Of a stretch of DNA of 64,000 nucleotides, positions 1-52,900 are shown one piece after another. Source of the stretch: Naegleria gruberi (Eukaryota); assembly GCA_000004985.1 (NCBI GenBank), contig GG738865.1. The stretch is one strand, 5' to 3'. The notes beneath the pieces were generated by a model that saw only the letters and a list, made by a program, of their open reading frames with translations, searched no databases and had not been told where the DNA came from. The position numbers and the translations under genes are program-made. How positions within the stretch are numbered: the stretch's first letter is position 1; each line of letters starts with the position of its first letter.

Positions 1-417
1 ACCCAAACCCAAACCCAAACCCAAACCCAAACCCAAACCCAAACCCAAACCCAAACCCAACCCAAACCCAAACCCAAACCCAAACCCAAACCCAAACCCA
101 AACCCAAACCCAAACCCAAACCCAACCCAAACCCAAACCCAAACCCAAACCCAAACCCAAACCCAAACCCAAACCCAAACCCAAACCCAAACCCAAACCC
201 AAACCCAAACCCAAACCCAAACCCAAACCCAAACCCAAACCCAAACCCAAACCCAAACCCAAACCCAAACCCAAACCCAAACCCAAACCCAAACCCAAAC
301 CCAAACCCAAACCCAAACCCAAACCCAAACCCAAACCCAAACCCAAACCCAAACCCAAACCCAAACCCAAACCCAAACCCAAACCCAAACCCAAACCCAA
401 ACCCAAACCCAAACCCA
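1..417. repeat. terminal telomeric repeat array (CCCAAA)n, equivalent to (TTTGGG)n on the G-rich strand
   Basis: About 69 perfect tandem hexamers starting at base 1. The C-rich strand runs 5'->3' on the + strand, as expected at a left chromosome end. CCCAA 5-mer variants occur at about 57-62 and 121-126. Degenerate copies (aaccctag, cccaaaatt) follow to about 470. Confidence 0.9.
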
Positions 418-3757: not shown

Positions 3758-4072
3758 CCCAAACCCAAACCCAAACCCAAACCCAAACCCAAACCCAAAC
3801 CCAAACCCAAACCCAAACCCAAACCCAAACCCAAACCCAAACCCAAACCCAAACCCAAACCCAACCCCAACCCAAACCCAAACCCAAACCCAAACCCAAA
3901 CCCAAACCCAAACCCAAACCCAAACCCAAACCCAAACCCAAACCCAAACCCAAACCCAAACCCAAACCCAAACCCAAACCCAAACCCAAACCCAAACCCA
4001 AACCCAAACCCAAACCCAAACCCAAACCCAAACCCAAACCCAAACCCAAACCCAAACCCAAACCCAAACCCA
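3758..4072. repeat. interstitial (CCCAAA)n telomere-like array, about 52 units, same orientation as the terminal array
   Basis: Perfect hexamer tandem with one CCCCAACCCAA variant near 3862. It ends cccacgactaaggtcagacccaac. ORFs 3685..4119, 3693..4094 and 3697..4110 are translations of the repeat (QT/PK, GL, GF dipeptide runs). Confidence 0.9.
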
Positions 4073-8257: not shown

Positions 8258-11200
8258 TTAAAATAATTTTGCCAATACTGATAGCTCATTAATAATATCA
8301 TTAAACGAAGGTCTTTCCAGTGGTGCCTGATTCCAACATTTCACCATTAAATTTTGATATCTTTCCACTAGTGAAATAATCCCACTTCCATCCAATTGAT
8401 TACTATCCTTTCTGATATTGAAAATTTGTGAATCCTGATTGATAATCCATTCATTAATTTCCTCTCTGGACTTTAATATTATTGGACGATTTCCCAGGGA
8501 GACAAGATAAGGAATTCGATAAGGTGAAGCATCTTTTTGAACTTCCTTAGTAAGAGGATTTTCAATGAACGGAACAATACAGTATAGTAATTCATACATA
8601 ATGATTGAAAAACTGTAAACATCTAATTTTGTAGCAATTTTGAGTGATTTCTTTTCGTCTTTTGGAACAATTGAATCGTCAACTGATTCTGGAGCTAGAT
8701 ACATCAAAGTACCCACGTTCATTGTCATGGTTGACTGAACAGAATTTCTTACCAATCTCACCAATCCAAAATCACATACTTTTCCTTGAAAATGATCATT
8801 CAAAAGAATATTTCCAGGTTTCTATAAAAGGATTAATATTAATCCAATTATGTTAAAATAAAAAAAACGTACCAAATCTCTGTGAATAATTCCAGGTTTC
8901 ATATTATGCAAATAATCCATTCCATTTGCAACATCCAACAGAATGGAAATTCTCATAGAAAATTGTAATCTGAGAGTTCCATTCTTACATTGATAAATTA
9001 CTTGATCCAAACTTCCTTTTGTTAAATATTCAGTGACCATGTACTTGTTTTGTCTAGTAATGGCCACACCATAGAATTGGACAATGTTTAAATGGTGGAG
9101 TCTACTTAAAATAGCTGCTTCCTTGTCGAATTCATCAACTTCATTGGTCATTTCTAATGATTTTATGGATTTGATAGCAACTTTGATATTTCTCCATTTA
9201 CCCAAATAGACAACTAAAATGTTTGAAAACTAAAAATCAACAAGTGACTTACCTCCATTTCCTCCTTCTCCAATCTTTTTCTCTATATGTAAATCCTCAA
9301 TTGGAATGATAAAGCTTTGATCCTCATTATCCAATAATGGAATAAATAAATCCCCATTACCTGCACTAGCAGATGTCGATGCGCTCTTCTTAGAAGCTTT
9401 TGAATGTTGTTTTGTTTCCTCTTCATCATCACTCATATCAAAGATAACCTTCTTATCATTTAGTTTTCTTTCCAATTCCGCTTCTGCTCTATCCTTTTCC
9501 TTCAATCTTCTTAAACTATTGACAACTTTCCTCAAGATGAAATAGATCAGTAATGAAATTAGTAAGCCCATGACAAAAGCCAATATTGTAACTGGCACCA
9601 CAATTGATACGATAAGCCATGTATAATCCTCAGGGTTTTTCACACAAGCGTACAAATAATTCACATCTTTAAATTCAATAATGGTTCCTGGAACTTTTTC
9701 AATGTGATATCCTTTATCACAATTTGCCATGTAAGCTGTGTAATAGAACTTCTGGACGAGTATATCGGCCTTGAAATACATGGATACTTCCACTAGAGAA
9801 GAATTTTCACCATTTGAATTAGTAATAATACTCTGTGGAATATTGACAGCAGAAAATACGTCATTTGCAATTAGATATGGAATTACCTTAATGGTAAAGT
9901 TTCCAATCTCTGTAATGTTGAATACAACCTTTGAGTGCATAGACCCGACACGTATTCTCTCATAATAGAGTGGAATTAGATTTCCAATATTGTCTGTACC
10001 TTTCACATTAAAGGTAAATTCTGATCCAGGTTTAAGAATGTTAGCTGACTTGTTGGTGTCTGATATAATTTCCAATTCACTCAATGCATATGAAAAATTA
10101 TTTGGTATATTGGTTCCAATTATTTCATTTCCAATAATTAGATTTCCAATAAATTCATTACTTGGATCTACACTTTCTGGACCTAAAATATATACAGCAG
10201 CACCCATAAACAATGCTTGATTGTTAATAAACTTGGTATTGATAAAACGTCCATAGCCAACCAAGTACCGTGGAATGTAAGCTATTGCTCCACCTTTTTT
10301 GGCATAATTATTAATAAATGTTGCTGATTTCCATATATAATCATCTACTCTGTTAACTGAGGCATCAGTACATAGGAAAATAGCACCACCCATATTGGAA
10401 TAGTTATCCCGACCTATTACTCTATTGCTATCGAATAGAGATCCAGAATATTGGAATTGAATTACTAATGAACCAATATAGAGTGCACCACCTGAAATCA
10501 GTGCAATATTATTTCTAAAAGTACATGAAATAATATTAAGAGAGTAGGCTAAATCTATAAATATGGCACCTCCTGCACCACCCACTGAGGTATTATTTTC
10601 GAATTGACAATTAGATATTATTCCAATAGCATTAAGGTAACTTCTAGAAAATATTGGAACGAAAATGGCTCCTCCACTTTCCCTTGCCTCGTTACCAAAG
10701 AATGAAGACTTGTCAATTACCAACTTGAATATTCTACTAATGTAAAGACAAGATCCATTGATCCCTCTGTTGTTTAGAAATTGAGAATTTGTAATTGTGA
10801 CTTCATAGCTTTGTTCAATGATTACAAGATTTTTCAGATCTGGATAATAAGAGTTGCTATTGTTTGTCAACGTAATTTGATCAAGTTTCACTGAAGAAAA
10901 TCCTTGAATTGAAGCAAATGACTCTCCGTCATAGCCATGTGTATTTAAAATCTCAATACTGGTACCAAAATCAGCCATAATTGCAGAATCTCCACTATAT
11001 TGTGTAAATTCATTAGTATTGAATGTAATTTTAACAATATTTGTAATTCCAATCTTTGAATTGATTAATAAACATCCATAAACTTGCAACTCTTTAGATG
11101 AAGCAAGAAATAGTTGTGTTTCTTCAAATTTGGTTTGAAAAATTGTAATCTTGTCCATTTCAGAAAATAACATTCCACTTCCCACACCATTTACAATACT

Positions 11201-12324: not shown

Positions 12325-13769
12325 TCAGTCAAAAATGATTGTAATATCAGATAATTTTCCAATTTGGGTGGCTTCTTTGAGCTTGGTGAAAAAGTGAATT
12401 AGACTTGACTTTGGTTTCACAATAATATAAATTGCTGTATATCCTGCTGATACGTGGTCCAGTTTAAATCCACTTGGAATGTCCAATTCAAATAATGTGT
12501 CTCCTGTATTACCTCTAGATTCAATATATTGTCTATTTGGGGAAACAATCATGAGTGATAAATTGGAGGTGCAAAGAGATGATCCTGCATACTTCTTATC
12601 TTGCTTTATAAGTTCTGGCTCGCCCTTTGAGAGCTGATAGAGACTATCATTTTCTATTATAAATTGTCATTGTAAATAGTGAAATATTTTGCATACATAC
12701 TCAACACATATGATCGGTAATTGAATTTACAAACTCCAACATCAATCCAATCATGAATACTAGCATTTAGTTCGACTTGTTGGAAACTACTGATTGTAGC
12801 ACTATCTCCAGAACCACCTTCCATCTTTCCAGACATGAAAATTCTATTATCTTTTAATAATATCAACGTATGATCATATCCTGTTTGTATTTTAGAAATG
12901 TCACAATCAAACTCATAAGAAAATGTATACTTGTTGACATTATCATTTTGTTTGATTCCGAAATTACATAATGAAGCTGATCCAGCTCCATAAATTTTCC
13001 TATTATTCACAGCAAAAACAGTAAAGAAAGTTCCTCCATCAATGTGAGTGATTTTGTAATTGGAAGGTAAATCTAGATGATCCAACGGAATATGTGTAAA
13101 ATCTCCAAATGTTCCAGACTGTGTAATCCCAGTTTGATAGAAATAATTGTGACCAGCTCCAAACAAGTACTTGTCATTAATTACTAACACCGAATGAACC
13201 CATCCTATTAAAGATTTCAATCAAACAACGATCCTTGTCAACATTTAATTCACTTGAAAACATACCACAAGCGATTTTAGTAACTCTGAAATCATGATCA
13301 ATTTTTCCCATTAGTATTAAAGGTTCCATCATTCTTAGAACATCAATCCTTTTGAAATACGGAATTGCTGAAGTATCCTCACCACATCCACACTATTATT
13401 TAAATTAAAATCGTGATGAAGATCAAAACCTACCTGAAGATAAGCATTGTATCCACAAACATATAATTCATCTTCCGTAGTAACCAAGAATACATGCGAT
13501 CTTCCACTAACCATATATTTAATTCTATTAATTATTTCCTCATATTCAACCTTTCCCAAAGTAACCGAACCATGATAAAGTCCTCTCGGTTTATCCACAC
13601 CAGTAACATCACTCCTAGCCCAACTTTCATCAAAAGCCTCCAATTTTACCAACTCTGAGATTTCATTCGCTTTGCATTCAAAGCCTAAATTTTCTCCCTC
13701 TTCTATTAAATATTTGATCATCAAAATATTAAATATTATTTGTATCATCATCATGTGATTGATCATCAA
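12325..13769 (-). CDS. RCC1-like beta-propeller repeat protein, 4 exons (introns ~13394-13434, ~13206-13266, ~12654-12700)
   Basis: Three track ORFs (13335..13769, 12657..13220, 12325..12552) join in frame when GTAGGT...AATAG, GTATGT...TTAATAG and GTATGT...TTATAATAG introns are removed. Repeats are of RCC1 type: VCGYNAYLQCGCGEDTSAIP, KIACGWVHSVLVINDKYLFGAGHNYFYQTGI, IYGAGSASLCNFGI, HTLILLKDNRIFMSG, VSAGYTAIYII. The track start at 13769 is TTG, so the true initiator is uncertain. Confidence 0.6.
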
Positions 13770-23088: not shown

Positions 23089-23207
23089 GGCTACGGCCAT
23101 ATCACGATGAATGCACCTCATCCCGTCCGATTTGAGAAGTTAAGCATCGTCGAGCTACATCAGTACTGAGGTTGGAGACAACTTGGGAACCTGTGGTGCT
23201 GTAGTCT
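23089..23207 (+). rRNA. 5S ribosomal RNA gene, solitary
   Basis: GGCTACGGCCATATCAC...CATCCCGTCCGATTTGAGAAGTTAAGC...AGTACTGAGGTTGGAGACAACTTGGGAACCTGTGGTGCTGTAGTC aligns along its whole length with eukaryotic 5S consensus. The ends pair (GGCTACGG with CTGTAGTC). A TTTTT pol III terminator follows at 23207-23211. Confidence 0.9.
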
Positions 23208-23426: not shown

Positions 23427-26065
23427 TTATTCTTCGGGTGTGGAATACAACAGTGCTGAAGGTAATCTCTCACCTGGTTTGATAAAACTCACAAATTCCT
23501 TGGCTACAGCCGAATGGTAATATAACAGATTTGGATTTGTTGTTGATTCTTGCACTGTTGATATTAAATGTTCTAATCTCATTACAACAACATCGTTAGG
23601 ATCCAATCTTTTGGCTTCTGCAAGTTCCTTTCTCATCTTGGTCAAATCATCTTGATCGAATTCATCATCCACAAATAATTTTGAAAAGTATGAAGAAAAT
23701 GCATCAAATTTAGAGTTGGCCTTCTTTTGCTCCAATTCATAAAGCCATTCATCATCTTGCACAATATTCTTTCTAAGAATTTCATATACTGTATCTATTT
23801 GTCCCTTCTCCTTATTCCAGATTCTTTCTGTTGGCCTAGTAATAAAAGACTCCTGTGTTTGTGTAAATGTCCTTGAATCACAAATGATTGCCACATTAAG
23901 ATACCATGAAAAGTCATTCAATAGTTTGGCTCTTTCAATAACCTCTCCAACCAGAGCCATGTAACGCATTTGCTTATTACCAACATTACCTTGAATCATT
24001 TGACCTGATGAAATGGAGATGCATGATTTCAGAGCTATTTGATCATCTTTTTGAATTTGATCATTAATGGAATTGAAAAAGGTTTGTATCTTTAGGGCTG
24101 TTTCAATGGCAGTACTTGAAGGACTCTTATCTGAAGGTGAAAATATAATGACATATTCATTGTAGGCTTTGATTTGTAAATCTGCCTTACAGGTCTTACA
24201 CATTTGTGAAATTGCGGTCAGACATTTAGAAATCAAGTTCTGTAACAATCCAGATTCGTAATCAAAGTTATTCTGATTCAGATTTGGAATGGTCAAATAC
24301 ATGATGGAACACTCTTTCATTCCCAGACCAAGTTTGAATAAATGACTGGACTTGTGATTGGAATTTCTGTGATGGGATTGATGTTGATGAATAGAAATTA
24401 CATCTGAGGCACCGTTTGAACTTCTTCTCGAAATTGTATCAAAATTATTGTTGGAATTCTTGGCTGCTGCTGTAAATGAATTAGCATTATCAGTATTGGT
24501 TTCGGTATCTTGCTTGGCTTCATCCAATTGATTCAAAATGGAATCTGGAATGAATGCTCTAATTTCAGAAAGCCATCTTATTGTTTCACTCAGAGAGGCA
24601 TAGATTGCTTTGGGCTCGCTAAAAATTGAACTTCTTCTTTGAATTTCAGACAAGTGCAAGGTTTCAATATTCTTAAAATCTTGCTGAAGTTTTGCAAATG
24701 GGCTTGTTACTACCCAACCAACAAGAATGCTCACAAGAATTCCCAAAATGGCCACAGCAATAGAAACTCCAAGAATAACCCAACTACTTTCAATAATTCC
24801 CTTCTTAATTTCAGATTCATCAAAGAAGAGAGTCATTCTCCACTTTAAATTGTGGAATGTATAAGGTGCAGAAGAGATGAGGAATGAATTTCCCAAACCA
24901 TTATCCAAACTTGTTTGGAAAGAGGTCAAATTTGCAATATTATTCTCTTGTTGATGTTTGAACAGTTTCTCCATCATTTTACCTGCATTTTGTGAGACAA
25001 TTTCAGTTGTTTTGACTCTCTTTGAATCAACTCCATCCACAGCTAGAGAAGATCCAATAATATAATCATTGCCATACTCTGAAATGATCACAAATCCTTT
25101 TTGCATGACTTTTACAGATGATAAAAACTTGGCGATTGCTGCCAGTGAAATGTTGATCTTGGCAAATCCAATTCTTGTCTTGTTAGTTGATGAGGTTGGA
25201 TCTGATCTCCTATAAATTGGTGTACTCCAAAAACTCGAAATTGGTCCATTAATTACTATTTAAATTAGGTTGAATAATAATAAGAATTAGAGTTAATACG
25301 GTTAGAATATGAGAGAAAACACATACCCTTATAAGGAGCTCCAAAACCACCATTCACATATTGACTATGAACAATCATTGATTCCTTATAGTAATCTGTA
25401 TTGGCTACTACATAGGTAATATTAGTAGTGACCTTATCTGGATAGTATTCTCCTGTGGTCATGTTTGCCTTGTACATGATAAATCGTGAACCCTCTGGTT
25501 TTCTCACATACACCAATGAACCATCTGCATTGACACTGTAGGCATAAAGAGCATTGTTTCCATCCTCTCCAAAACACAGATTTGTCACTGTGACTCCAAA
25601 TTGTTTCACTCGTGTAAAGAGATAGTATTGTATCGATTCAGCCATATCCACAAATCCATTATGGTAATCCTCAGCTATGGAATCGGCAACATATTTGGCT
25701 GGTAACAGTTGTGAATTGACAAAGCCACCAATCTTTTCATTCATATTTTCAATAATTACCTTAACTTGATCCAAAGAGGCCTGTTCATTCATTGTATAGG
25801 AAGTGATCCAGATAGTCAATGCTGTCGTCACCACAACCATCATGATCATGACAATGAGGAATAATCTTACACTGAGTAGAAATCTGAGACAACACCCCCT
25901 ATCTGATGATGAGTAGCCATCATCATAATCCTGCCCTCCCGAATCATCTTCAGGGAACATGTTCTGTAAATTATTATTCTGCACATATTTTGCTGATTTT
26001 GAGAAGGAGAGTTCAGTTTCTGATGTTGTTGATTGTTGAGGAACCACCCTATTCGTTACTACCAT
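23427..26065 (-). CDS. receptor with TM, extracellular Cache-like domain, TM, juxtamembrane linker and a class-III nucleotidyl-cyclase homology domain, apparently catalytically degenerate. Two exons, approximately 26065..25327 and 25255..23427.
   Basis: The intron at ~25256-25326 (GTATGT...AAATAG) joins ..GAPYKG to VINGPISSFWS.. in frame. The first TM is FLLSVRLFLIVMIMMVVVTTALTIWI and the second is WVILGVSIAVAILGILVSILVGWVV. The cyclase-homology core is CSIMYLTIPNL...KAYNEYVIIFS...GQMIQGNVGNKQMRYMALVGEVIERAKLL. By eye this aligns to vlFaDIvgFT...GDaym...GpvvaGvvG.kr.rYdvwGdtVNtAsRmE, with the metal-binding Asp pair and the N/R transition-state residues replaced. Confidence 0.65.
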
Positions 26066-26911
26066 ATTGTATTGTTGTTGTTGTTTAAATGTATATTAAC
26101 GTGGATGATGATGAAGGGGTAATAATAATATTGAATATAAGTTTATAATATAACCGTTAGTATAATATCTAAAAAACGCGAGAAGTATAATTCTTCCTTA
26201 ATATATAAATCACAAATTCTAGTTTTTAATTTCAAATCTTCTAAATGTTTGATGCAACTCTCTCTATTCAATGATTAAAAAAACAAGCCTTATTACTTCT
26301 TGAAATGGCCAATTTAACAACACAACAAGAATATGCAACGTTTTTTACTTTGAGTTGTTTTTTTTTGGAGGGAAACTGGTTCAAGAACAGTTAGACCATT
26401 AGGAGTGTTCAAAAAATCAAAAAGGATATAGAAATAAGTTCAAATAAGGAAGAATTTTTGGATTTAGGTTGAAGTAGACTTTGTTAAGGCACAGTAAACA
26501 CAAGTAATAGTGTAAACTTTTATAATACAAGAGAATCTTTTGTTTAAATGGTGATTATTCTACTTTTAAAGATGCTTAATTCTCCTGGATCTGTTTGCTC
26601 AGGTTCATTCAAAACAATAATGCCAGAGTGAAATAGGATTTGCATTTACAGCCAAGTCTTCAAACACTGGGCTTTACATTCTAATATACCAAAAGGATGT
26701 TCTAGATCAGATAAGCCTTAGTGGGCGCCTGACAAAAATCATATGATAGTTAATTGGAACTCTCGCAATATTATTTTCATCCTCCTCATTCCAACACCTC
26801 TCCAACTCTGTGTCCTTCACTCCAATCTTTAAAAAAAGCGATAAGGACGATGCCTTAGTGCTCAACAACCTTAAAAAAACAAACAACAACAATTTGTTTG
26901 ATATAGGAGAG

Positions 26912-27588
26912 ATGAATAAATACCCAACATCATTAAGTGTATCGAGGAGAGCAATTCTTACTGTCTTGTTGGGACTACTGCTCTTGATTGCATTTTGCAG
27001 CTCGACTTCTTTCATTCATGCACAAGAAGAACAACAAGCAGGAAGACAACATCCACAACCTTCAGGAATGAGACCAAGACCACCACGTCCAATTCATTCA
27101 GGAGAAAGACCACCAAGACCTCATCCTGAACACTCTGGAATAAGACCAAGACCATCTGGAGGACACAAACTCCATCCACAGCCAAGACCTTCAGGAATGA
27201 GACCACGTCCATCTTATGCTCGTCCAAGACCTTCTGGACCAAAACCTCGTCCACCAGGACCAAAACATTCAGGACAAAGACCACCACGTCCACAGCTCCA
27301 CCAAAAGATTCTACAACTATTGAGCCAGACAATGATATTGCTCAAAATCAAACTGGAGAAATTTACCATGGAGAAAAGGAAGGAAATGAATTGACAATGG
27401 AAATTATCATCTTTTCTAGTGTTGGAGCTGGAATTTTATTGATTGGAGTTGTAATTGCTATTGCTCTTGTTAATTTCTTGATTTTGAAAAATAACAAGAC
27501 TAAATTTCAAACTCATACTGAACTTGTGGATGATGAAGCTGATACTACAAGAATTTTGGGTATTAACGATGGATCTGTTCATGCCTAA
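26912..27588 (+). CDS. type-I membrane protein with signal peptide and Pro/Arg-rich (RPRPSG) repeats; a C-terminal TM plus tail is encoded in the +2 frame. Frameshifted or dual-frame low-complexity gene.
   Basis: ATG at ~26912 gives the signal peptide MNKYPTSLSVSRRAILTVLLGLLLLIAFCSSTSFIHA. PRP repeats run to the stop at 27394. The other frame is open from ~27130 and reads ..KTSSTRTKTFRTKTTTSTAPPKDSTTIEPDND..GEIYHGEKEGNELTMEIIIFSSVGAGILLIGVVIAIALVNFLIL.. (S/T-rich stalk, TM, short tail) to 27588. Confidence 0.45.
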
Positions 27589-27927
27589 ATAAAAAGTCAA
27601 TATAATTCAAACCTTGATATTACACCAAGTTTACAACACAGTTTTATTCAATTTTAGAAAGATCCAATGGTAAGATTTTGTTCTTTCAAGGAAACAATCT
27701 TTTGAGGACTCGAAAATTTCAACACCCATCACTAGCAATCGTATATCTCTCTTCATTCAAAACTGTCAAAGATCTTATTAACTGAGGTCAGTACCTCCAT
27801 CCAAATCCTTTAAAAACCTTCTTTAATCCTCACTCCCAAATCTCTCCCAGCAACGTTTTTTCCCACAATGGTCATAATTGAAATAAATTGAAAAACCGTT
27901 AAAGTGGCTGTTATTCAAATCAAAAAA

Positions 27928-28215
27928 ATGTCTGTACATTCCTACCATCACGATAACAATGAATATCCCTATGTTGTTAAGGGGTATGCTGCTAATAGTG
28001 GCAGCTCGCATCACTCGGGTGATCAGACTGAGATGGAAATGCTCAGATCAGTCAAACATAAAACTACACAACAATTGAGTGACCAGATGCATTGTGTGCT
28101 CAATGTGGTCAATCTTCCGAGTTCGAATGGTGAGGGAAAGGGTGATAGCAGTAGTAGAATGAGTTCAAGTCGTTCGAATGTATCGTCTTCAGTGGATTCC
28201 GCAAGGAAGCATTGA
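27928..28215 (+). CDS. small (~95 aa) protein, member 1 of a tandem paralogue pair, function unknown
   Basis: MSVHSYHHDNNEYPYVV...QQLSDQMHCVLNVVNLPSSN is paralogous to the next gene. ATG at 27928; the track start at 27904 is GTG. Confidence 0.55.
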   Translation: MSVHSYHHDNNEYPYVVKGYAANSGSSHHSGDQTEMEMLRSVKHKTTQQLSDQMHCVLNVVNLPSSNGEGKGDSSSRMSSSRSNVSSSVDSARKH

Positions 28216-28653
28216 TTTTATTCCGGATACATCATTATCACCTAAGAAGAAAATATTCTCTAAGATCTCCCTCAACAATATGTAAATAATTACTAAGAGT
28301 TATTTGTAAATATATAAATAAATACATCATGCTAGGAAAATTCTATTAATATAAATAACAGTAATATATTATTTTGCCTCAGTTCTGTAACGTCTATCAA
28401 GATTGCGCCCAATGTTCAAACAAGAACATGATGGCAACTTTATTAGGGCCAATGACTAATAGGGGTTCATTAAGGAAGTCAAAATTGTTGTTGGATTTTT
28501 ATTAAAAAACAAAATCTCATCACTTTCAGCTCTGAATTATTCTTCGTTTTTTGGTTGAGTTATCCAGTAGCTATTAAGAACAAAACCGTTATTTCATTAT
28601 CCAATCTCTCTACTAACAGACAAACATTCATCAAGAGTCTAAATATCGCAAGT

Positions 28654-28926
28654 ATGAGTACCTTCACACCACACCATTATCGTGACAATCAAGAATATCC
28701 ATACGTTGTTCATTCACATGTAAATTTGAAAACCAAGAGTGAATATCATGCAGAGATGAATCACTTGAGAAGTTTACCTCACAAATCAACAAGCCAATTA
28801 GCTGATCAAATGCATTGTGTTGTAAAGGTGGTTCAATCCTTACCTCCATCAAACTCTTCAGTTGAATTGAATACAGCCTCAAAGGTTTCATCAATCTCCC
28901 TCAATAGAAAATCATTCAGAAAATAA
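28654..28926 (+). CDS. small (~90 aa) protein, member 2 of the tandem paralogue pair
   Basis: MSTFTPHHYRDNQEYPYVV...SQLADQMHCVVKVVQSLPPSN shares the motifs EYPYVV and QL[SA]DQMHCV with member 1. The track start at 28555 is TTG. Confidence 0.55.
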   Translation: MSTFTPHHYRDNQEYPYVVHSHVNLKTKSEYHAEMNHLRSLPHKSTSQLADQMHCVVKVVQSLPPSNSSVELNTASKVSSISLNRKSFRK

Positions 28927-29196
28927 GGGAGGAAGAAATTCTGTGATGCGATCTTCTGGAAGCTCTCTAAAGAGATACTTTAAGCCCTAATACTAATAAT
29001 TATTTAATTGTCTCTGTGATGATTTAATAATTATTTAATTAATCTATCCTAAGTATCATCCTAAGCTTCCTAATACTAACTGTAAATACTTCCCTAACAC
29101 AATGTCCTCTCCCTTTGTAAATATAATTTATCAACTAATTAATAAAACAAAACAACAACATGTTCTTTCACCTAACATTGACAAATTAAAACTATT

Positions 29197-30721
29197 TTAA
29201 TAGGAAGAAGTCTTCTTCTTTTTAACTTGTCTAGATGATGAAGAGGATGCTGAAGATCTCTTAACACTTCCTCTTGAACGAGAGGATGATGAGGAAGATG
29301 ATTTCTTACCTCCTCTCTTCACAGCGGCACTTTTTGATGAAGGTCTACCACCAACTCCCTTACTTGCCTTCTTTGCTCCCTTAACACCTCTCTTTGATGA
29401 TGTGGAAGATTTCAATGAGCTCTTTGAGCTGCTCTTCTTGCTTGACTTTCCAGCAGTTCTAATCTTCTTGTCAGCACCCTTGAATTTAGTAACCAATTTC
29501 TTATTAACAAAGACCTTCTTGTAATTGTTGAGTCTGGAATTGGCATCTTTCAAACTCTTGACACCAACTTGCTTTCTGACCTTATCATTGTGCTTTTTAA
29601 TATATGCTTTGATACCATTAGCAGTGGATGGCATGTAAATTCTCTTATTCAAACCAAGAGCAGTGAAACCCTTTCCAGAGCTAATGGCAGATTGAACCTT
29701 TTTCAATGTTCCTCTAATTTCAGAAAGAGATTTAGTCTTGAGAACTGGAGCAATATTTCTGGCAATAGTATTTTCAATAGTTGCAACATGAGTCTCTGAA
29801 AATCTATTAAGATTCATTCCCAATTGTTGAGCACGTCTTGACATGTTACCCAAACCAATATGAGCTAGAGTCTTGGCAATTGGTCCAGCAACATAATTGG
29901 CAGCAGAAGAAATGGAATTGGAATAGTGTCCAACATGTTCAGTGGATTCCAATGAAGTTTCAGATGCTGTTTCATCATTTTCCAAAGTTTGAGCACCACC
30001 TGAGGAGGATGATGCAGCAGAAGCAGATGCAACTGTTGCAGATAGGGTATTCTTTAAGAGATCAGCTCCTGGATGTGAAGTTTTGGAAAGTAAATTGGAA
30101 ACAATTAACATGAGTTGAGATTTGACTTGTTTTTGTTCAGAAGTTTGAGTTGGAATGGCTTCCACAATCTAAAATGATCCAACCACACACATTTTAAAAT
30201 TCCAATATAATCAATATTCCATCAAATCCAATAAATTTTACAAAAATTGTAAAATAACATACAGCATTCAAATCTTCAGCAAAATACAACAAATTTCCAG
30301 CAATAACTCTTTCATCAAATGGGGTAATAGTACTCTTCAATGCTTCAGAAAGAGTTCCAGCTTTAGTTTTTTCATCAGCAGCTTCAAAATTAACACTTGA
30401 TGAAGATTCGTCTTGATTAGTTAACCTTTCGTGTGTTGCTGGCTTTTCTTCCTTGACTGGTTCAACAGGTTGAGAAGGAACTTGATTATTTTGTGGTTCA
30501 GGTTGTGGAGTTTCTTTCTTTTCCTCTGGTTGACTTGTTTGTTCAGGTTGAGGAGTTGCAACTGCTGGTGAATTGGTTTTGCCTTTTGCAGCCAAATTCA
30601 AATTGACCACAACAGAAACGTTTTCTTGAGTTTTGGCCAAACCATCAGCTGCCAATGTGAAAGAAGCAGCAAGGATTGTGAGAAGAAGGATGGAAAATAC
30701 CAACACAAGCGGTTTTGTCAT
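29197..30721 (-). CDS. secreted protein with a P/Q/E-rich region and a Lys/Ser-rich basic C terminus; 2 exons (intron ~30166-30259)
   Basis: Signal peptide MTKPLVLVFSILLLTILAASFTLAA. Removing the GTATGT...TTTTAG intron joins ..LLYFAEDLNA to IVEAIPTQTSEQ.. in frame. The C terminus has KKSSSKSS/SSSSSSRSRGSVKR runs. Confidence 0.55.
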
Positions 30722-31740: not shown

Positions 31741-31947
31741 TATTTCAATAAATATTAAAATTTCAGCCCTCGCTATTGGGGACAAAAACAGTCCGCACTA
31801 GCACGCAATTGCTTTCCGTTATATATGCGCTTTCATTGTTGTTCAAAAAAAATCAACAACAGGATTTTTCACTTTTGGTTTAGAAATTCTTCACATCATC
31901 TTGTTGTAAAAAAAACCGTTACCTTTTTTCATCATCATTAAAGCATC

Positions 31948-36932: not shown

Positions 36933-37727
36933 ATGTACAACCAAAGTGAAACGGCAATCTTTAACAACGAAGAGCAGCCACCTCAAGTAGAAGATGCCTA
37001 TGCCGGATATGATGATGTTGCCACAGGAACAACAGAAGCACCTGGATTGTCTGCCGAAATTGTCTATCATCCTTACTTTCAATTGGCAACATTTTGCTTA
37101 ATAATGGGAGTTATTGGTGTTGTTGCTGTTCCAATCTCTGGTTGGTTTATTGGTGATGGATTATATCGTTCCTATAGCGGACCATCACATTTATTAGATG
37201 TTGTTGTTTGCTTATTGGTTGGATTATTCTTAATGGCCCTTACTTTGATGATTGTTGGATTTATTTTGGCTGTTTTGGCTACCCAATGGAATTACATTCA
37301 TGAAGGTACATCAAAGGAACAGTATGGAGCAGGTGAAGGAATGACATCAACCCCAGTATACGATCAAAAGACTATTGTTCAAAAGAGGAGAACATTTATC
37401 ATTTCAGTAATCTTTACCGTTCCATACTCTATTATTGGTTTTTATTATTGTATTGCTGGATTAGTTGCTGTTATTTCCACAGCCTCATCAAATTTCCCAA
37501 CATTTACTAACTTTGTCGATTACACTGGATTTGGTTTGGGATTTTTAATGCTCTATTTTGGTTGTGCTTTGATTTCGCTTACAGTCATGATCTCAGTAGG
37601 TCTTTTCAGAAGTTGGAAACAAGCTGAAACCTCTGATCCAGGTTGTTCACATCCTATTCTTCAAAAGATTGGAGACTTTTTGAAGAGATATGTTTGCTGT
37701 GTTAATGGTCAAGTTGCCGAAGCTTAA
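36933..37727 (+). CDS. four-TM membrane protein, family unknown
   Basis: 264 aa with four long hydrophobic helices (e.g. FQLATFCLIMGVIGVVAVPISGWFIG, VVVCLLVGLFLMALTLMIVGFILAVLA). Confidence 0.5.
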   Translation: MYNQSETAIFNNEEQPPQVEDAYAGYDDVATGTTEAPGLSAEIVYHPYFQLATFCLIMGVIGVVAVPISGWFIGDGLYRSYSGPSHLLDVVVCLLVGLFLMALTLMIVGFILAVLATQWNYIHEGTSKEQYGAGEGMTSTPVYDQKTIVQKRRTFIISVIFTVPYSIIGFYYCIAGLVAVISTASSNFPTFTNFVDYTGFGLGFLMLYFGCALISLTVMISVGLFRSWKQAETSDPGCSHPILQKIGDFLKRYVCCVNGQVAEA

Positions 37728-45953: not shown

Positions 45954-47339
45954 TCACAATCCAACAATATTCACCTTCTTCTTCTTTTTCTTTGCCAACA
46001 TTTCTTGTTCTATTTCTTCTGAGGTTTTGTTCTTCTTTTTAGAGGTGGAGGATTTGGTTTTATCCTCAGTTGTGGTGGCCTGTTTGGCTATCTTATCATC
46101 TTTCTTTGGTGTAGGTGGTGGCACTACTTTTTGTTGTATATTCTCATTTGTGGCCTTAGTTTCATTATCATTGGATACGAATTTTTTCAATGCTTGATTG
46201 ACCTTAGCGAAATAGGGATGTTCTGGATTGGATTCTCTCAATTTTTCCTCAATTTTGGAAGAAATTTCAGCCCTTTGTTTACTTGTATAGAGTGCCATAC
46301 TTTCGAGAACTCCACTCGATCTAATGATGGCAGCCCTCACCTCTTGAATACCAAGCATATTTTCAGAACTGGTTGGAATAATGTATGGGAAACATGTTCT
46401 AAAGGCCTCTCCAGATTTCATAGCATCGTAGGTAACTTGCATCAATTCACACAAGTGTTCATGAGATACTTTATCACACTTGGTGAGAATTATTTGATAG
46501 GGAACTCCTGATTCCTCCAACATGTCCATAAATTCACAATCCTGTTCATAAATACCATATCTTGCATCCAATAATATGAAAACTCTTCTCAATACTGTAT
46601 TTTCTGTGCAGTATTGTCTCAGTACTGTATTCCAACCCTTGATTTTTTCCTTATTTCCTTCAGCGTATCCATATCCAGGTAAATCCACAACATAGAGCAT
46701 GTCATGCATATTGAAATAATTAATACGTTTCGTGTGACCTGGCGTCGATGACACTCTAGCCAATCTATCAGAATCCACAATAGAATTCAATAAACTCGAT
46801 TTTCCAACATTACTTCTTCCAGCAAATGCAATTTGTGGCATTTTCTCATTCGGTTCTGGAAATTCCTCAACTGTTCCACAAGTAAATTCCATCTTTGAGT
46901 GTTCCCTACTGAAAATATATTCAATATCAGAGTAGGTCACTGGAAGTTCTCCCTCAAGTTTTGTAGTAACAATATCAGGTGCCGAGTTGAGAATTATTGG
47001 TGGAGAAATGTAATCAGGTGCAGAAGGAACAGGTAATCCATTAAAGGTGTACTTGTACTTTTTCATTAGAGTTTTAGGATCAAAGGAAGAGACAATGGAT
47101 GTTGATTCTTCCATTTCATTTTCATCATCTATCAAAATATCATCATTATTTGATGATGAAAATTTATCATCGGAATAATATCGTTTTTGAATGGATGAAG
47201 TTGTAGTGTTGTTGAGAATGGAATTGATAACAAATTGTTGATTTGTAATTGTTTGAAAAACTTGTTGCTGTTTTGAATATTGATTGAAAAGATGCAATTG
47301 TTTTGATGATGACCCTATTCTACTAATTAATTTGTGCAT
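45954..47339 (-). CDS. EngB/YihA-family GTP-binding protein, probably organellar ribosome-biogenesis GTPase, with a K/E-rich C-terminal extension
   Basis: G1 FAGRSNVGKSSLLNSI, G2 region TPGHTKRIN, G3 VVDLPGYGYA, G4 ILTKCDK. The N-terminal ~60 aa is presequence-like. Confidence 0.75.
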   Translation of the reverse strand: MHKLISRIGSSSKQLHLFNQYSKQQQVFQTITNQQFVINSILNNTTTSSIQKRYYSDDKFSSSNNDDILIDDENEMEESTSIVSSFDPKTLMKKYKYTFNGLPVPSAPDYISPPIILNSAPDIVTTKLEGELPVTYSDIEYIFSREHSKMEFTCGTVEEFPEPNEKMPQIAFAGRSNVGKSSLLNSIVDSDRLARVSSTPGHTKRINYFNMHDMLYVVDLPGYGYAEGNKEKIKGWNTVLRQYCTENTVLRRVFILLDARYGIYEQDCEFMDMLEESGVPYQIILTKCDKVSHEHLCELMQVTYDAMKSGEAFRTCFPYIIPTSSENMLGIQEVRAAIIRSSGVLESMALYTSKQRAEISSKIEEKLRESNPEHPYFAKVNQALKKFVSNDNETKATNENIQQKVVPPPTPKKDDKIAKQATTTEDKTKSSTSKKKNKTSEEIEQEMLAKKKKKKVNIVGL

Positions 47340-49257: not shown

Positions 49258-49824
49258 ATGCAAATCAACGGCAAACTTGTTTTCACCCTCCTATTGGCTG
49301 TTGTATTGTTATTCTTCATTGCTGACTCTCAACAATCATGTAGTGGTCTTCCAACTTGTTCAACTCCTCGTGCTGGACACAAACCTTCTGTGAATGGTTG
49401 CGGACCTAGACATTCAAAGATCTTGAACTTGTTAGGAAATGTTCTTTTCAAAGCTTTTGAAGAATGTTGTAATGGTCATGGTATGTTTCTTCTTTCAAAA
49501 ATTATCGGATTGACCATTTTATTTTGTTTGGCATGTTTTAATTGACTATTTAATTTTGGAAAAGATGTTTGTTATGAAACATGTGGAGTTTCTAGATCAA
49601 CTTGTGATAGTCAACTTTATAGTTGCATGAAGCAAGTTTGTAAGAAACAATCAAGACTCAAGAGAGGTTGGTGTGAATTGAAAGCTAAGGGAATTAACAT
49701 GGGATTGAAACCTGATTTTGATGTGAATTGTAAGGCATTTGCTGGAGCTCAAAATAAGGCATGTGATTGCTCTGTTGCTGCACCAGCTTCCAATGATGAT
49801 GATGATCTTTCAGATGAGGAATAA
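49258..49824 (+). CDS. secreted group-XII-type phospholipase A2 homologue, 2 exons (49258..49480, 49565..49824)
   Basis: Signal peptide MQINGKLVFTLLLAVVLLFFIADS. NGCGPRHSKIL matches the PLA2G12 NGCGSP motif. Removing the GTATGT...AAAG intron (49481-49564) creates CCNGHD|VCYETCG, identical in pattern to the PLA2G12 catalytic CCNxHDxCYETCG. Further Cys follow: STCDSQLYSC, CKK, CDC. Confidence 0.7.
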
Positions 49825-49924: not shown

Positions 49925-52900
49925 TTATTTGGATGTGAGAGAGGATGGTAGGTAGAATTTCAGAGAAGGAATGGTAACTGATGAATTATCAAGTAGGGAT
50001 CTTCCAGTAATTTGCAAGAGTACAAAATCGTCATCTGAATTGAAAGCATTGAAATTCACCCAAAGTTGGACCAATTTAGAGCTCATTCTCTGATTCAATG
50101 GAGATACAGTAGAGAATACAAATTGAAAATTGGAATAGATTGAGTAGGAATTGCCAGATGCATTGGAATCTTTCAATTCTATAGAAAGAGTTTCACATGA
50201 GTATTTTTCCTTCATCATGTCAACAATATCCTTAATTGTAAAGTCTTGTCTTTCATTTGCATTGTTAAGTTCTAAAAGATCCCATTCTGTTACAGAAATA
50301 GTTTCATTTCCTGTATTAAGGGAAAAGCTTTGTGTTCTCAAATGTAAGTATTTAAAAAAATCTGTTGAATACTTTCCACTACAATCTATTGAATAACTGG
50401 GGAATTGTTCACCTTTCATAGGAGATTCTTGTACAAGCTTTCCAATAATTGTTAAAAGTATTGTAACAATCAAACACATACCTTGTAATATTGTAAAGTT
50501 GCATATCCAGCAGTTATTGAATTACTAATTGAATTGCTAGGAGTCAATCCAACCACTCTCTTAATATAGTGTTTATCCACTATTGGTGGAATTTTATAGC
50601 ATTGAGCTCTAACTAGAGCACATGCTTGAACGAAATCCAAATGTAAATCATTGTAAGGATCAAAAGTAATGAATTCAATATTCAATTGGTTCAATATTGT
50701 TTCAATTTTTTCTTTCAATGTTTCTTCAGAAAGTTCAGAATCAATTTTTTTCATTCCCAAATCTTCTTCTTTCAAAACTTTGGCTAATATTTCTTTCAAT
50801 TCTTCCATATTTGGTAAATCAACTGAATAAACCTTGGATCTCAAAATAGCACTATATAGAACAAAATCCAAGTGAGAGGCATTGATAGCATTGAAAGGAA
50901 CAGGAACTGGTCTTCTCATTCTAGCCAAATATTCAGGTAAAGTGCCATTCCTCATGAATGGAGCAAAATATGTTTCTAATATTTCACTAATTCCCTTATC
51001 GAAATATTCATTGAATTTGACAACTGCCCATCTTATGCTATTTTCAAAATGGCAAGGATTGTATAGAACAATATCAGTGTACTTGTCTCTGAAATCACCA
51101 AATGGGCCTAAATGAATGAGTAAATTATCCTTATACATTTCTTTGAAAGGATAGTCAATTGAGAAATTTATCATATCCTTCATGGAGCCATAATAATTGA
51201 TTATTTGTGGATAGGATACTTCGTTACTCTCCCTAACATGCTTTCCACTCAAGTGTGGAATCATTAAAGTGACATTTCCTTTCATACATTCACTTGTGGC
51301 AAAAATTGCTCTTTTGGTAGAATTAATGACACGAGAAACAATTAAATCAGCAATTGGTTTTCCAGGAACTGTGCACGTATATCCACTATATTGATCCAAA
51401 TTATTCCAAGAAAATTGTTCCTCTTCTTCATTCACTGGTCTTGCTCTCGCATATTCTTCAACCATGTCAATTTTCATTTGAGGATTAATGTGATTTTTCA
51501 CGTAGTCTATTGCGAGCATGGACTTGATATTGGCAAACTTACTTATATCCTCCTCTATAATGAATGGATGTGTTATGAGATTTGGTAAGATGGCCTCCTT
51601 GGCATCGACAAGAGTTGTGGATGGAGCTTCTTCATGAGAACTGAGACCCATCAGGGCATAATTCTTCAAACATTCCCATCCTAATCCACCCATTCCAAAT
51701 ATTACCTCATTAGATTTCATTATTTTTGATTGTAATGTTTTACCAATCAAGTTAATTTGTTGTTGAAATCTTTTCATTTTGTGTGGAATGTTAACACAAT
51801 CTTCGTGAGTTGGAAGAGGACTTGGCAGGCAATCCCATGCATCTAAACATTCCCATTGATCAATTATTGGAAAGTAATACATACTCAAATTCTTGAGAAT
51901 TTCCATCACAATGAAAGCTCCCGTGATGCTTGTGAATGGAGCTGACCTTCCTTGACATGTGAAAGCAAGGGTTTTGCAAATTTCTTGATTGAAGAATTGG
52001 TTTGGAATTCTATCTTTTGCAAATTGCACAAATTCTAAAGCATCTTGCTCATGGTAAGGTTTTGGAATTTTTCCATTCTCCCTTTCGAATAGTTCAAGTT
52101 GAGTGAAAGCATGTCTCTTCTCTACCTTCGTCCTTGAATCCGAATCTTTAAATGTTGGATTATCCAACTCTTCTTTAAGTGATTTAAGCTTGTGAGATCT
52201 TATATCTAGACCAGTAACATTACATTTCATGAAATAAGCTGAGCCATCCCCCAATTCGAATTTTCCAAAATTAGTAGAATCCAAATCTACAACCACTCGA
52301 TTTCCAATCTTTGATTTGATTCTAACCGCCTTGTGTTCATTCAATTCCGTCATTCCCCTAACATTTCTAAAGACAATATTTTGATGAACATTCATTCCCT
52401 CTTCCTTATTAAATTCATCATCTAAAAGATCAATTTTTGTTGGGTTTCCATTGATGATATCCTTAATTGAACAACCTTCTTTGAAGCCAGGGTTCAGATC
52501 TTTGATTTTGTGTTCGCCCATATCATAGAATATTAAACATGATAAGCCCTTCATGTCGGATGCCACGAATTTAATATTATTATCGTGACAGGTTTGAGCC
52601 AAATCAATCAGTGATGAAAGAGAATGTTCAGTACAAATAATAAAATCAAACTCTTTCAAAAACTGCACATCACCTGCCAAGCTGTCAACTTGACCATCTT
52701 TCACATTAATTTGTGCAAATGGATTCAATCCATTCAACACAATCATTGCTCTCTCCGCTCTATTTCTTCCAATCACTTCTACCTCCTTCGAATCGGCAAC
52801 AATCGAATAAAAATCTGCCAAATCCTCATACGAAACCATCTTTGAATCCATCAGTGTTAATTGTTCAATTCCATTTTGGAGTAAATTCTTTGCCACTTCC

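Follow-up and report, generated by a model that had tools for sequence, protein, structure and literature searches.

A tandem pair of unannotated small open reading frames in Naegleria gruberi and the Naegleria protein family to which it belongs

Introduction

Four predicted proteins of the genus Naegleria are the closest described counterparts of a tandem pair of short open reading frames (ORFs), here termed ORF1 and ORF2, that resides in a 64,000-nucleotide stretch of the Naegleria gruberi NEG-M genome (contig GG738865.1; the whole stretch is referred to as the window). All four are uncharacterised: D2UX99 (NAEGRDRAFT_61688; 137 amino acids, aa) and D2VH93 (NAEGRDRAFT_68133; 115 aa) of N. 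gruberi, FDP41_007189 (149 aa) of N. fowleri and C9374_011825 (119 aa as annotated) of N. lovaniensis. ORF1 and ORF2 share with all four the same conserved core, size class, Ser-rich flanks of predicted disorder and basic C-terminus, and with FDP41_007189 and C9374_011825 they also have in common the HK[ST]T and EY[PF] motifs and, in the case of ORF1, an end of the type [RK]KH. Unlike these named relatives, the pair is unannotated, is arranged in tandem and shows no synteny with the family loci of N. fowleri and N. lovaniensis, which are syntenic with one another. ORF2 departs further from its relatives in that it combines the N-terminal features of one subgroup of the family (subgroup A, below) with a trace, in the +1 frame, of the YFKP end that characterizes the other (subgroup B).

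In size and general build, the proteins also recall the small regulators exemplified by ARPP-19/ENSA/Igo and PKI, which are heat-stable and intrinsically disordered, are likewise about 10 kDa, hydrophilic and largely disordered, and which carry one short binding motif or helix together with basophilic phosphorylation sites. The analogy is a functional one only, as the ENSA FDSGDY and PKI RRNAI pseudosubstrate motifs are not present in the ORF1/ORF2 family, and there is neither a sequence relationship nor a Pfam match to connect them. A further point of comparison concerns the stop codon of ORF2. In Euplotes, AAA-UAA and AAA-UAG serve as motifs for programmed +1 frameshifting, and ORF2 likewise ends in AAA-TAA, followed by a +1 frame that contains the conserved C-terminus of the family. 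However, this arrangement is not kept in the orthologues or paralogs (ORF1 stops at CAT-TGA, and YFKP is in frame in D2VH93), and a 1-nucleotide (nt) insertion would explain it equally well.

What is new here is the placement of ORF1 and ORF2, both previously unannotated, within an existing, uncharacterised family that is found only in Naegleria. The locus tags and accessions of the family are not mentioned in any paper in the literature that was searched, and the supplements of three Naegleria omics papers contain no useful matches.

Two paralogous ORFs maintained at the protein level

ORF1 and ORF2 lie on the same strand, 438 base pairs (bp) apart (Table 1). The first-pass annotation of this DNA had described two tandem ORFs on one strand, 440 bp apart, and this description holds with a small correction to the start of ORF2, which is at 28654 rather than 28655. 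The two predicted proteins are identical at 39 of 84 aligned positions (46%; BLASTP E 3e-20), in accordance with the paralogy proposed at that stage, and the alignment contains every motif then named: the MS..HH start, EYPYVV, EM..LRS, HK[TS]T.QL[SA]DQMHCV..VV and the Ser-rich tails. Position -3 is an A at both initiation codons. No third copy of the pair is detected by tblastn in the window.

The resemblance between the two ORFs is confined to the protein level. Different codons are used at 23 of the 40 residues that are identical between them, synonymous sites are saturated (proportion of synonymous differences, pS = 0.87; of non-synonymous differences, pN = 0.45), and the flanks, including the upstream regions, do not align. 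For these reasons the pair is read, from sequence comparison, as an old tandem duplication maintained by protein-level selection and not as a recent DNA repeat. ORF2 is the more conservative copy, retaining KSEYxxEM and a trace of the YFKP end, and ORF1 is the more diverged.

Both ORFs are missing from NCBI and UniProt, and also from the public proteome of N. gruberi, and they are therefore considered to be unannotated genes. The sole database copy is P0001, which corresponds to ORF1 and stems from a prokaryote-style ORF call on a metagenome contig (L001). This contig matches window positions 23440-28448 at 96.4% identity and ends at 28448. Between the window and L001, ORF1 displays seven substitutions, all of them synonymous third-position changes, with no non-synonymous change and no insertion or deletion (indel). 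Because just 20% of possible substitutions are synonymous, this pattern has a probability of about 1e-5 if the changes were random. Neighbouring bona fide genes have synonymous to non-synonymous ratios of 16:5 and 7:2 in the same comparison, and the 233 nt immediately 3′ of ORF1 contain 7 substitutions and 10 indel columns. Between the N. fowleri and N. lovaniensis orthologues, the ratio of non-synonymous to synonymous substitution rates (dN/dS) is 0.13 overall and falls to 0.05 within the 49-codon core. These patterns argue strongly that ORF1 and ORF2 are, with high probability, real genes of the Naegleria family.

A protein family of the genus Naegleria

An exhaustive HMMER search with a profile of the ORF pair, covering 1.84 billion representative proteins, recovers five true relatives, namely the four predicted proteins introduced above and P0124, a single read-assembled protein from soil. 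Their E-values against the whole library range from 2e-5 to 1.5e-4, and the remaining matches are to repeats or low-complexity sequence and do not represent relatives. In this search no member was found outside Naegleria, including in Willaertia. The relationship is also apparent from tblastn, with values of 1e-8 to 1e-9 against the member loci of N. fowleri, N. lovaniensis and N. gruberi, and a profile of the family recovers ORF1 (as P0001) at 3e-26. Neither another, word-indexed search with this profile nor a scan of Joint Genome Institute (JGI) metagenome DNA yielded further relatives. As far as these searches reach, the family is restricted to the genus Naegleria. The suggestion that the pair belongs to a lineage-specific family is thereby supported and made more precise: apart from the one soil sequence, all relatives recovered come from N. 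gruberi, N. fowleri and N. lovaniensis.

The members share a consensus core, EMxxLRxVxxK[ST]TxQLx[DE]QMxCVxxVVxNL, with 13 invariant columns and an invariant Cys, and all invariant columns are present in both ORF1 and ORF2. Two subgroups can be distinguished. Subgroup A, which unites ORF1 and ORF2 with FDP41_007189 and C9374_011825, has HK[ST]T and EY[PF], is His-rich and has [RK]KH as its characteristic end; in particular, the RKH end of ORF1 resembles the KKH with which FDP41_007189 and C9374_011825 terminate. Subgroup B, consisting of D2UX99, D2VH93 and P0124, has [KN]KST and ends in S[ML][RK]xYFKP. In D2VH93, which is encoded by a single exon on a second metagenome contig (L002), the YFKP is in frame. 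The C9374_011825 gene model seems to be about 40 N-terminal residues short, since an in-frame upstream segment at L005 9881-10000, beginning MSSSHLNTPHPSYLSKHRNS, matches the N. fowleri N-terminus.

Comparison with known families agrees with the first-pass view that none applies. ORF1 and ORF2 have no Pfam match above threshold, and the relatives give only inconsistent sub-threshold matches; a profile search of PDB sequences (hmmsearch) gives a best E of 0.14 and nothing significant; and Foldseek returns no match in PDB for the ORF2 model. VBS_C3G9, NCD2 and LURAP were considered as possible identities for the family and discarded, as these matches are below threshold and differ from member to member.

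Predicted structure and composition

AlphaFold2 models were made for ORF1 and ORF2 only, from a 7-sequence alignment. In the ORF1 model, helices are formed by residues 29-40 and 47-60, with predicted local distance difference test (pLDDT) scores of 74-79, and in the ORF2 model by residues 28-40 and 46-62, with scores of 82-89; the remainder of both models is of low confidence. The conserved module of approximately 30 residues is thus predicted to consist of two amphipathic helices that are joined by a K-[ST]-T turn, and the proteins are predicted to be largely disordered elsewhere. In ORF1 numbering, the family-invariant residues are M36, L39, R40, K45, T47, Q49, L50, Q53, C56, V57, V60 and V61.

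The proteins of the family are 90-150 aa long, hydrophilic, mostly basic and Ser-rich, with ORF1 and ORF2 at about 10 kDa each. The grand average of hydropathicity (GRAVY) ranges from -0.75 to -1.5 and the serine content from 15 to 22%, and isoelectric points fall between 9.4 and 10.4 save for that of ORF1, at 7.1. The N-termini are hydrophilic as well, the mean Kyte-Doolittle value of the first 20 residues being -1.09 in ORF1 and -1.22 in ORF2, and the most hydrophobic 15-residue window in each reaches only 0.59 and 0.81, respectively. By this hydropathy heuristic, neither protein has a signal peptide or a membrane segment. Since both of these features are missing, the earlier proposal that the ORFs encode secreted peptides is left unsupported.

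The 3′ end of ORF2

The C-termini of the family end in [RK]KH or YFKP. ORF1, with its ARKH end, fits this pattern, and ORF2 ends in SFRK in frame, with YFKP and a stop codon in the +1 frame 62 nt downstream. The ORF2 stop codon is found in the context AGA AAA TAA GGG, and the +1-frame continuation, KGGRNSVMRSSGSSLKRYFKP, follows directly after it and carries the hallmark C-terminus, matching the S[ML][RK]xYFKP ends of D2UX99, D2VH93 and P0124. When the 64-kb window is read in its six frames, 127,996 codon positions in total, YFKP occurs just once, at this place, with a stop codon immediately after it.

It could be, therefore, that the present reading of ORF2 reflects a damaged, frameshifted allele or a fault in the assembly. 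The protein that is functional, or that was ancestral, would then be about 111 aa in length and end in SFR(N)KGGRNSVMRSSGSSLKRYFKP, with an extra A in the AGAAAAT run having created the AAA-TAA stop. The unique YFKP-stop just past the in-frame stop, the openness of the +1 frame across the junction and the location of the stop within a run of A residues all speak for such a history, as does the lack of a canonical splice donor. When all GT..AG combinations are enumerated, none provides a GTAnGT donor able to splice the YFKP tail into ORF2, whereas all seven introns inferred in the window (Table 1) begin with GTAnGT, mostly GTATGT, end with AG, are 39-94 nt long and join adjacent long ORFs. The candidate donors for canonical introns leading to the downstream tails of both ORFs, GTGGAT, GTATCG, GTTGAA and GTTTCA, do not conform to GTAnGT, and canonical splicing of the tails is unlikely because of this difference from the seven inferred introns. 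Nevertheless, the in-frame KSFRK end is itself similar to the (S)YFKP and SARKH termini seen in the family, so that the short form may function, and the comparison involves a single ORF2 allele, since L001 ends at 28448, before ORF2. The case for a damaged or misassembled ORF2 is about evenly poised. For the YFKP element taken by itself, the simplest reading is probably a 1-nt insertion in the A-run, present in a real allele or, less likely, introduced during assembly.

Possible function

The account that we favor, as a whole with somewhat better than even confidence, is that ORF1 and ORF2 are Naegleria-only tandem genes whose products may each act as a small intracellular adaptor or regulator, this being the most likely function but one to which we give only low confidence. 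The proposal of small regulators in the first-pass annotation is plausible in this light, on the basis of the predicted architecture. A more specific mechanism is offered tentatively. The proteins would be intracellular, either cytosolic or nuclear, and the helical hairpin with its single invariant Cys would be the working part, binding a partner conserved in Naegleria or self-associating. The variable, Ser-rich and basic tails might then tune the interaction of the hairpin through phosphorylation or localisation. Motifs of the type recognised by basophilic kinases occur in the tails of several members: the N. fowleri and N. lovaniensis proteins have a conserved RRST, RERLFS and ARSVKS are found in subgroup B, and ORF1 contains SRMS and SRS.

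Several points weigh against this account. The structure models are built on alignments of just 7 sequences, the phosphorylation motifs are short and lie within low-complexity Ser/Arg-rich sequence, and the mechanism has architecture as its sole foundation. In addition, the 3′ end of ORF2 is ambiguous, and ORF2 as read may be a truncated allele because of the YFKP-stop in the +1 frame.

Conceivably, the family could instead comprise small His/Cys metal-binding proteins, serving as a metal buffer or chaperone, in which the His stretches and the His-Cys pair of MHCV coordinate Zn, Cu or Ni. Histidine makes up 8.4-8.9% of ORF1 and ORF2 and 13.4% of the N. fowleri member, HHQHH and HHHHH runs are found in the N. 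fowleri and N. lovaniensis tails, and the invariant Cys adjoins a His in both ORF1 and ORF2. But the His-richness is limited to subgroup A, His accounting for just 1.5-1.7% of D2UX99 and D2VH93, and this weakens the proposal. Furthermore, there is no invariant His column, the invariant positions being hydrophobic or polar helix residues and the single Cys, and family members were not found in two supplementary files of the paper on N. gruberi and N. fowleri copper metabolism. A metal-binding role is accordingly regarded as improbable.

Could the YFKP tail be translated?

A different possibility is that the YFKP tail of ORF2 is expressed, through a programmed +1 frameshift at AAA-UAA-G or through an unconventional short intron running from a GT at 28861 or 28885 to the AG at 28927. 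The AGA AAA TAA GGG context and the conserved family terminus encoded in the +1 frame would suit such a mechanism. ORF1 offers a partial parallel, in that the +1 frame after its stop is open for about 22 codons, ends in PKKKIFSKISLNNM and bears a weak likeness to RERLFSARSVKSM, and in that an exact 11-mer, ATCTCCCTCAA, is common to the ORF1 post-stop region and the ORF2 tail. We nonetheless judge translation of the tail to be very unlikely. The donors that an intron would require, GTTGAA and GTTTCA, are unlike GTAnGT, and in the ORF1 stop context, CAT-TGA, a CAU codon in the P site would be unable to re-pair in the +1 frame. The likeness of the ORF1 tail is not significant (local score 25; p = 0.09 for the DNA of the post-stop regions), and PKKKIFSKISLNNM was rejected as a homologue of the family tails despite the shared 11-mer. 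Conserved +1 coding after the stop was likewise rejected for the N. fowleri and N. lovaniensis orthologues, because their post-stop regions cannot be aligned and contain non-triplet indels. We know of no report of such frameshifting in Heterolobosea.

If the tail were translated, ORF2 would give rise to a regulator specific to Naegleria in two isoforms, one short and one long, and a programmed frameshift of the Euplotes type at a +1 site would be without earlier report among heteroloboseans. Nothing else about the ORF pair than this YFKP tail in the +1 frame could raise its importance.

Finally, a reading of the ORFs as chance open frames, as non-coding DNA or as genes for classically secreted peptides is scarcely credible: both are short, were missed by genome annotation and sit in a subtelomeric locus, but the non-coding alternative is rejected because the substitutions are all synonymous, the orthologue dN/dS is low and the protein is conserved over three Naegleria species, and the secreted alternative is contradicted by the hydropathy results given above.

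Flanking elements

A 10-mer, AAAACCGTTA, occurs as three exact copies in the 64-kb window, all on the + strand and each shortly upstream of a + strand ATG: those of ORF1, of ORF2 and of a CRAL-TRIO gene (Table 1). Measured from AACCGTTA, the distance to the ATG is 34 nt at ORF1, 70 nt at ORF2 and 34 nt at the CRAL-TRIO gene. The copy at ORF1 is conserved in L001. It is possible that this candidate element acts in N. gruberi promoters or 5′ untranslated regions. Its reverse complement, TAACGGTTTT, resembles the Myb site YAACGG.

On the 3′ side, a 12-mer, TTTGTAAATATA, has exactly two copies in the window, one downstream of each ORF. Since each ORF has its own upstream AAAACCGTTA and its own downstream TTTGTAAATATA, we infer that ORF1 and ORF2 would constitute two independent transcription units. 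TGTAA and AATAAA were considered as general 3′-end signals and set aside, as they have no consistent position after other genes.

Table 1. Positions in the window of the ORF pair, its predicted cores, flanking elements and inferred introns
Feature	Position	Strand	Sequence, context or basis
ORF1 coding sequence, 95 aa	27928..28215 (ATG 27928, stop 28213-28215)	+	MSVHSYHHDNNEYPYVV...SARKH, stop
ORF2 coding sequence as read in frame, 90 aa	28654..28926 (ATG 28654, stop 28924-28926)	+	MSTFTPHHYRDNQEYPYVV...KSFRK, stop
ORF1 core, aa 35-63, predicted helix-loop-helix	28030..28116	+	EMEMLRSVKHKTTQQLSDQMHCVLNVVNL; alignment, AlphaFold2
ORF2 core, aa 34-63, predicted helix-loop-helix	28753..28842	+	EMNHLRSLPHKSTSQLADQMHCVVKVVQSL; alignment, AlphaFold2
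+1-frame continuation with hallmark family C-terminus	28925..28990	+	KGGRNSVMRSSGSSLKRYFKP, stop; directly after ORF2 AAA-TAA stop
10-mer, candidate promoter or 5′ element	27892..27901	+	AAAACCGTTA; 27-36 nt upstream of ORF1 ATG
10-mer	28582..28591	+	AAAACCGTTA; 63-72 nt upstream of ORF2 ATG
10-mer	31912-31921	+	AAAACCGTTA; upstream of CRAL-TRIO gene ATG 31948
12-mer, shared 3′-flank element	28303..28314	+	TTTGTAAATATA; 88 nt past ORF1 stop
12-mer	29114..29125	+	TTTGTAAATATA; 188 nt past ORF2 in-frame stop, 124 nt past +1-frame stop
Inferred intron	25256-25326	-	
Inferred intron	30169-30262	-	
Inferred intron	50438-50481	-	
Inferred intron	12654-12700	-	
Inferred intron	9214-9252	-	
Inferred intron	8822-8872	-	
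Inferred intron	49481-49564	+	

Genomic setting

The ORF pair is located about 27.5 kb from a TTTGGG telomere array of N. gruberi NEG-M. Tandem arrays occur at window positions 1-417, as (ACCCAA)x70, and at 3758-4072, as (CCCAAA)x53, both of which represent the reverse complement of TTTGGG, the candidate telomere repeat of N. gruberi (PMC3622300). Because the arrays match this repeat, the start of the window is taken to be a chromosome end, the second array is interstitial, 3.3 kb further in, and the ORF pair is subtelomeric. The window as a whole is AT-rich (GC content about 34%) and contains long ORFs with eukaryotic domains, and its first 6 kb have a GC content of 21-28% and a strong GC skew. 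Four window ORFs have exact matches among N. gruberi NEG-M proteins (D2VDK6, D2VDK7, D2VDL3 and D2VDM0, on an 820-kb scaffold).

Other features of the window are as follows. Domain matches include Chlam_PMP, RGS and cyclase, and a conserved GTPase, with its best matches in N. fowleri (56%) and Willaertia (54%), indicates Heterolobosea. Joining by the inferred introns unites ORFs of 266 and 559 aa into one cyclase-like gene, and ORFs of 175 and 322 aa into another, which is Ser-rich and apparently encodes a signal peptide. A full-length 5S rRNA gene (23089-23207, + strand; Rfam RF00001, 102.7 bits) stands alone between protein-coding genes, and no tRNA genes were found in the window. At 26810-27588 (+ strand), a Pro-rich ORF with RPRPSG-type repeats and a hydrophobic stretch near its N-terminus is followed by an ORF in another frame with a clear transmembrane segment, and the two are probably parts of a single gene for a mucin-like membrane protein, divided by an intron or a frameshift. 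The Pro-rich repeat part is hypervariable relative to L001, with 92 difference columns, mostly indels, in 26940-27439. An ORF of 264 aa at 36933-37727 (+ strand) is seen only in Logan and ENA contigs, and neither it nor a 461-aa YihA/EngB-like GTPase ORF at 45954-47339 (- strand) has an exact match among the N. gruberi proteins at NCBI; both may be unannotated or differently modelled.

The two metagenome contigs L001 and L002 come from one assembly (ENA ERZ929261, run ERR1078381), and both are N. gruberi-like. L002 encodes a protein identical to NEG-M D2VH93, and L001 is only 96.4% identical to the NEG-M window, which points to the presence in that sample of a second strain of N. gruberi or of a divergent haplotype.

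Biological implications

Two genes that were lacking from the N. gruberi NEG-M annotation can now be added to it, and a genus-restricted family of small proteins is defined by a motif and an alignment, its members having until now been entered separately in databases, each as a "predicted protein" with no link to the others. Protist genomes commonly encode small disordered orphan proteins, and for this reason the surprise value of the family is modest. It is, however, represented in N. fowleri, the brain-eating amoeba, and proteins that are specific to the genus and strongly conserved within it, with a dN/dS in the core as low as that reported here, are candidates for a role in Naegleria-specific biology and possibly for use in diagnostics.

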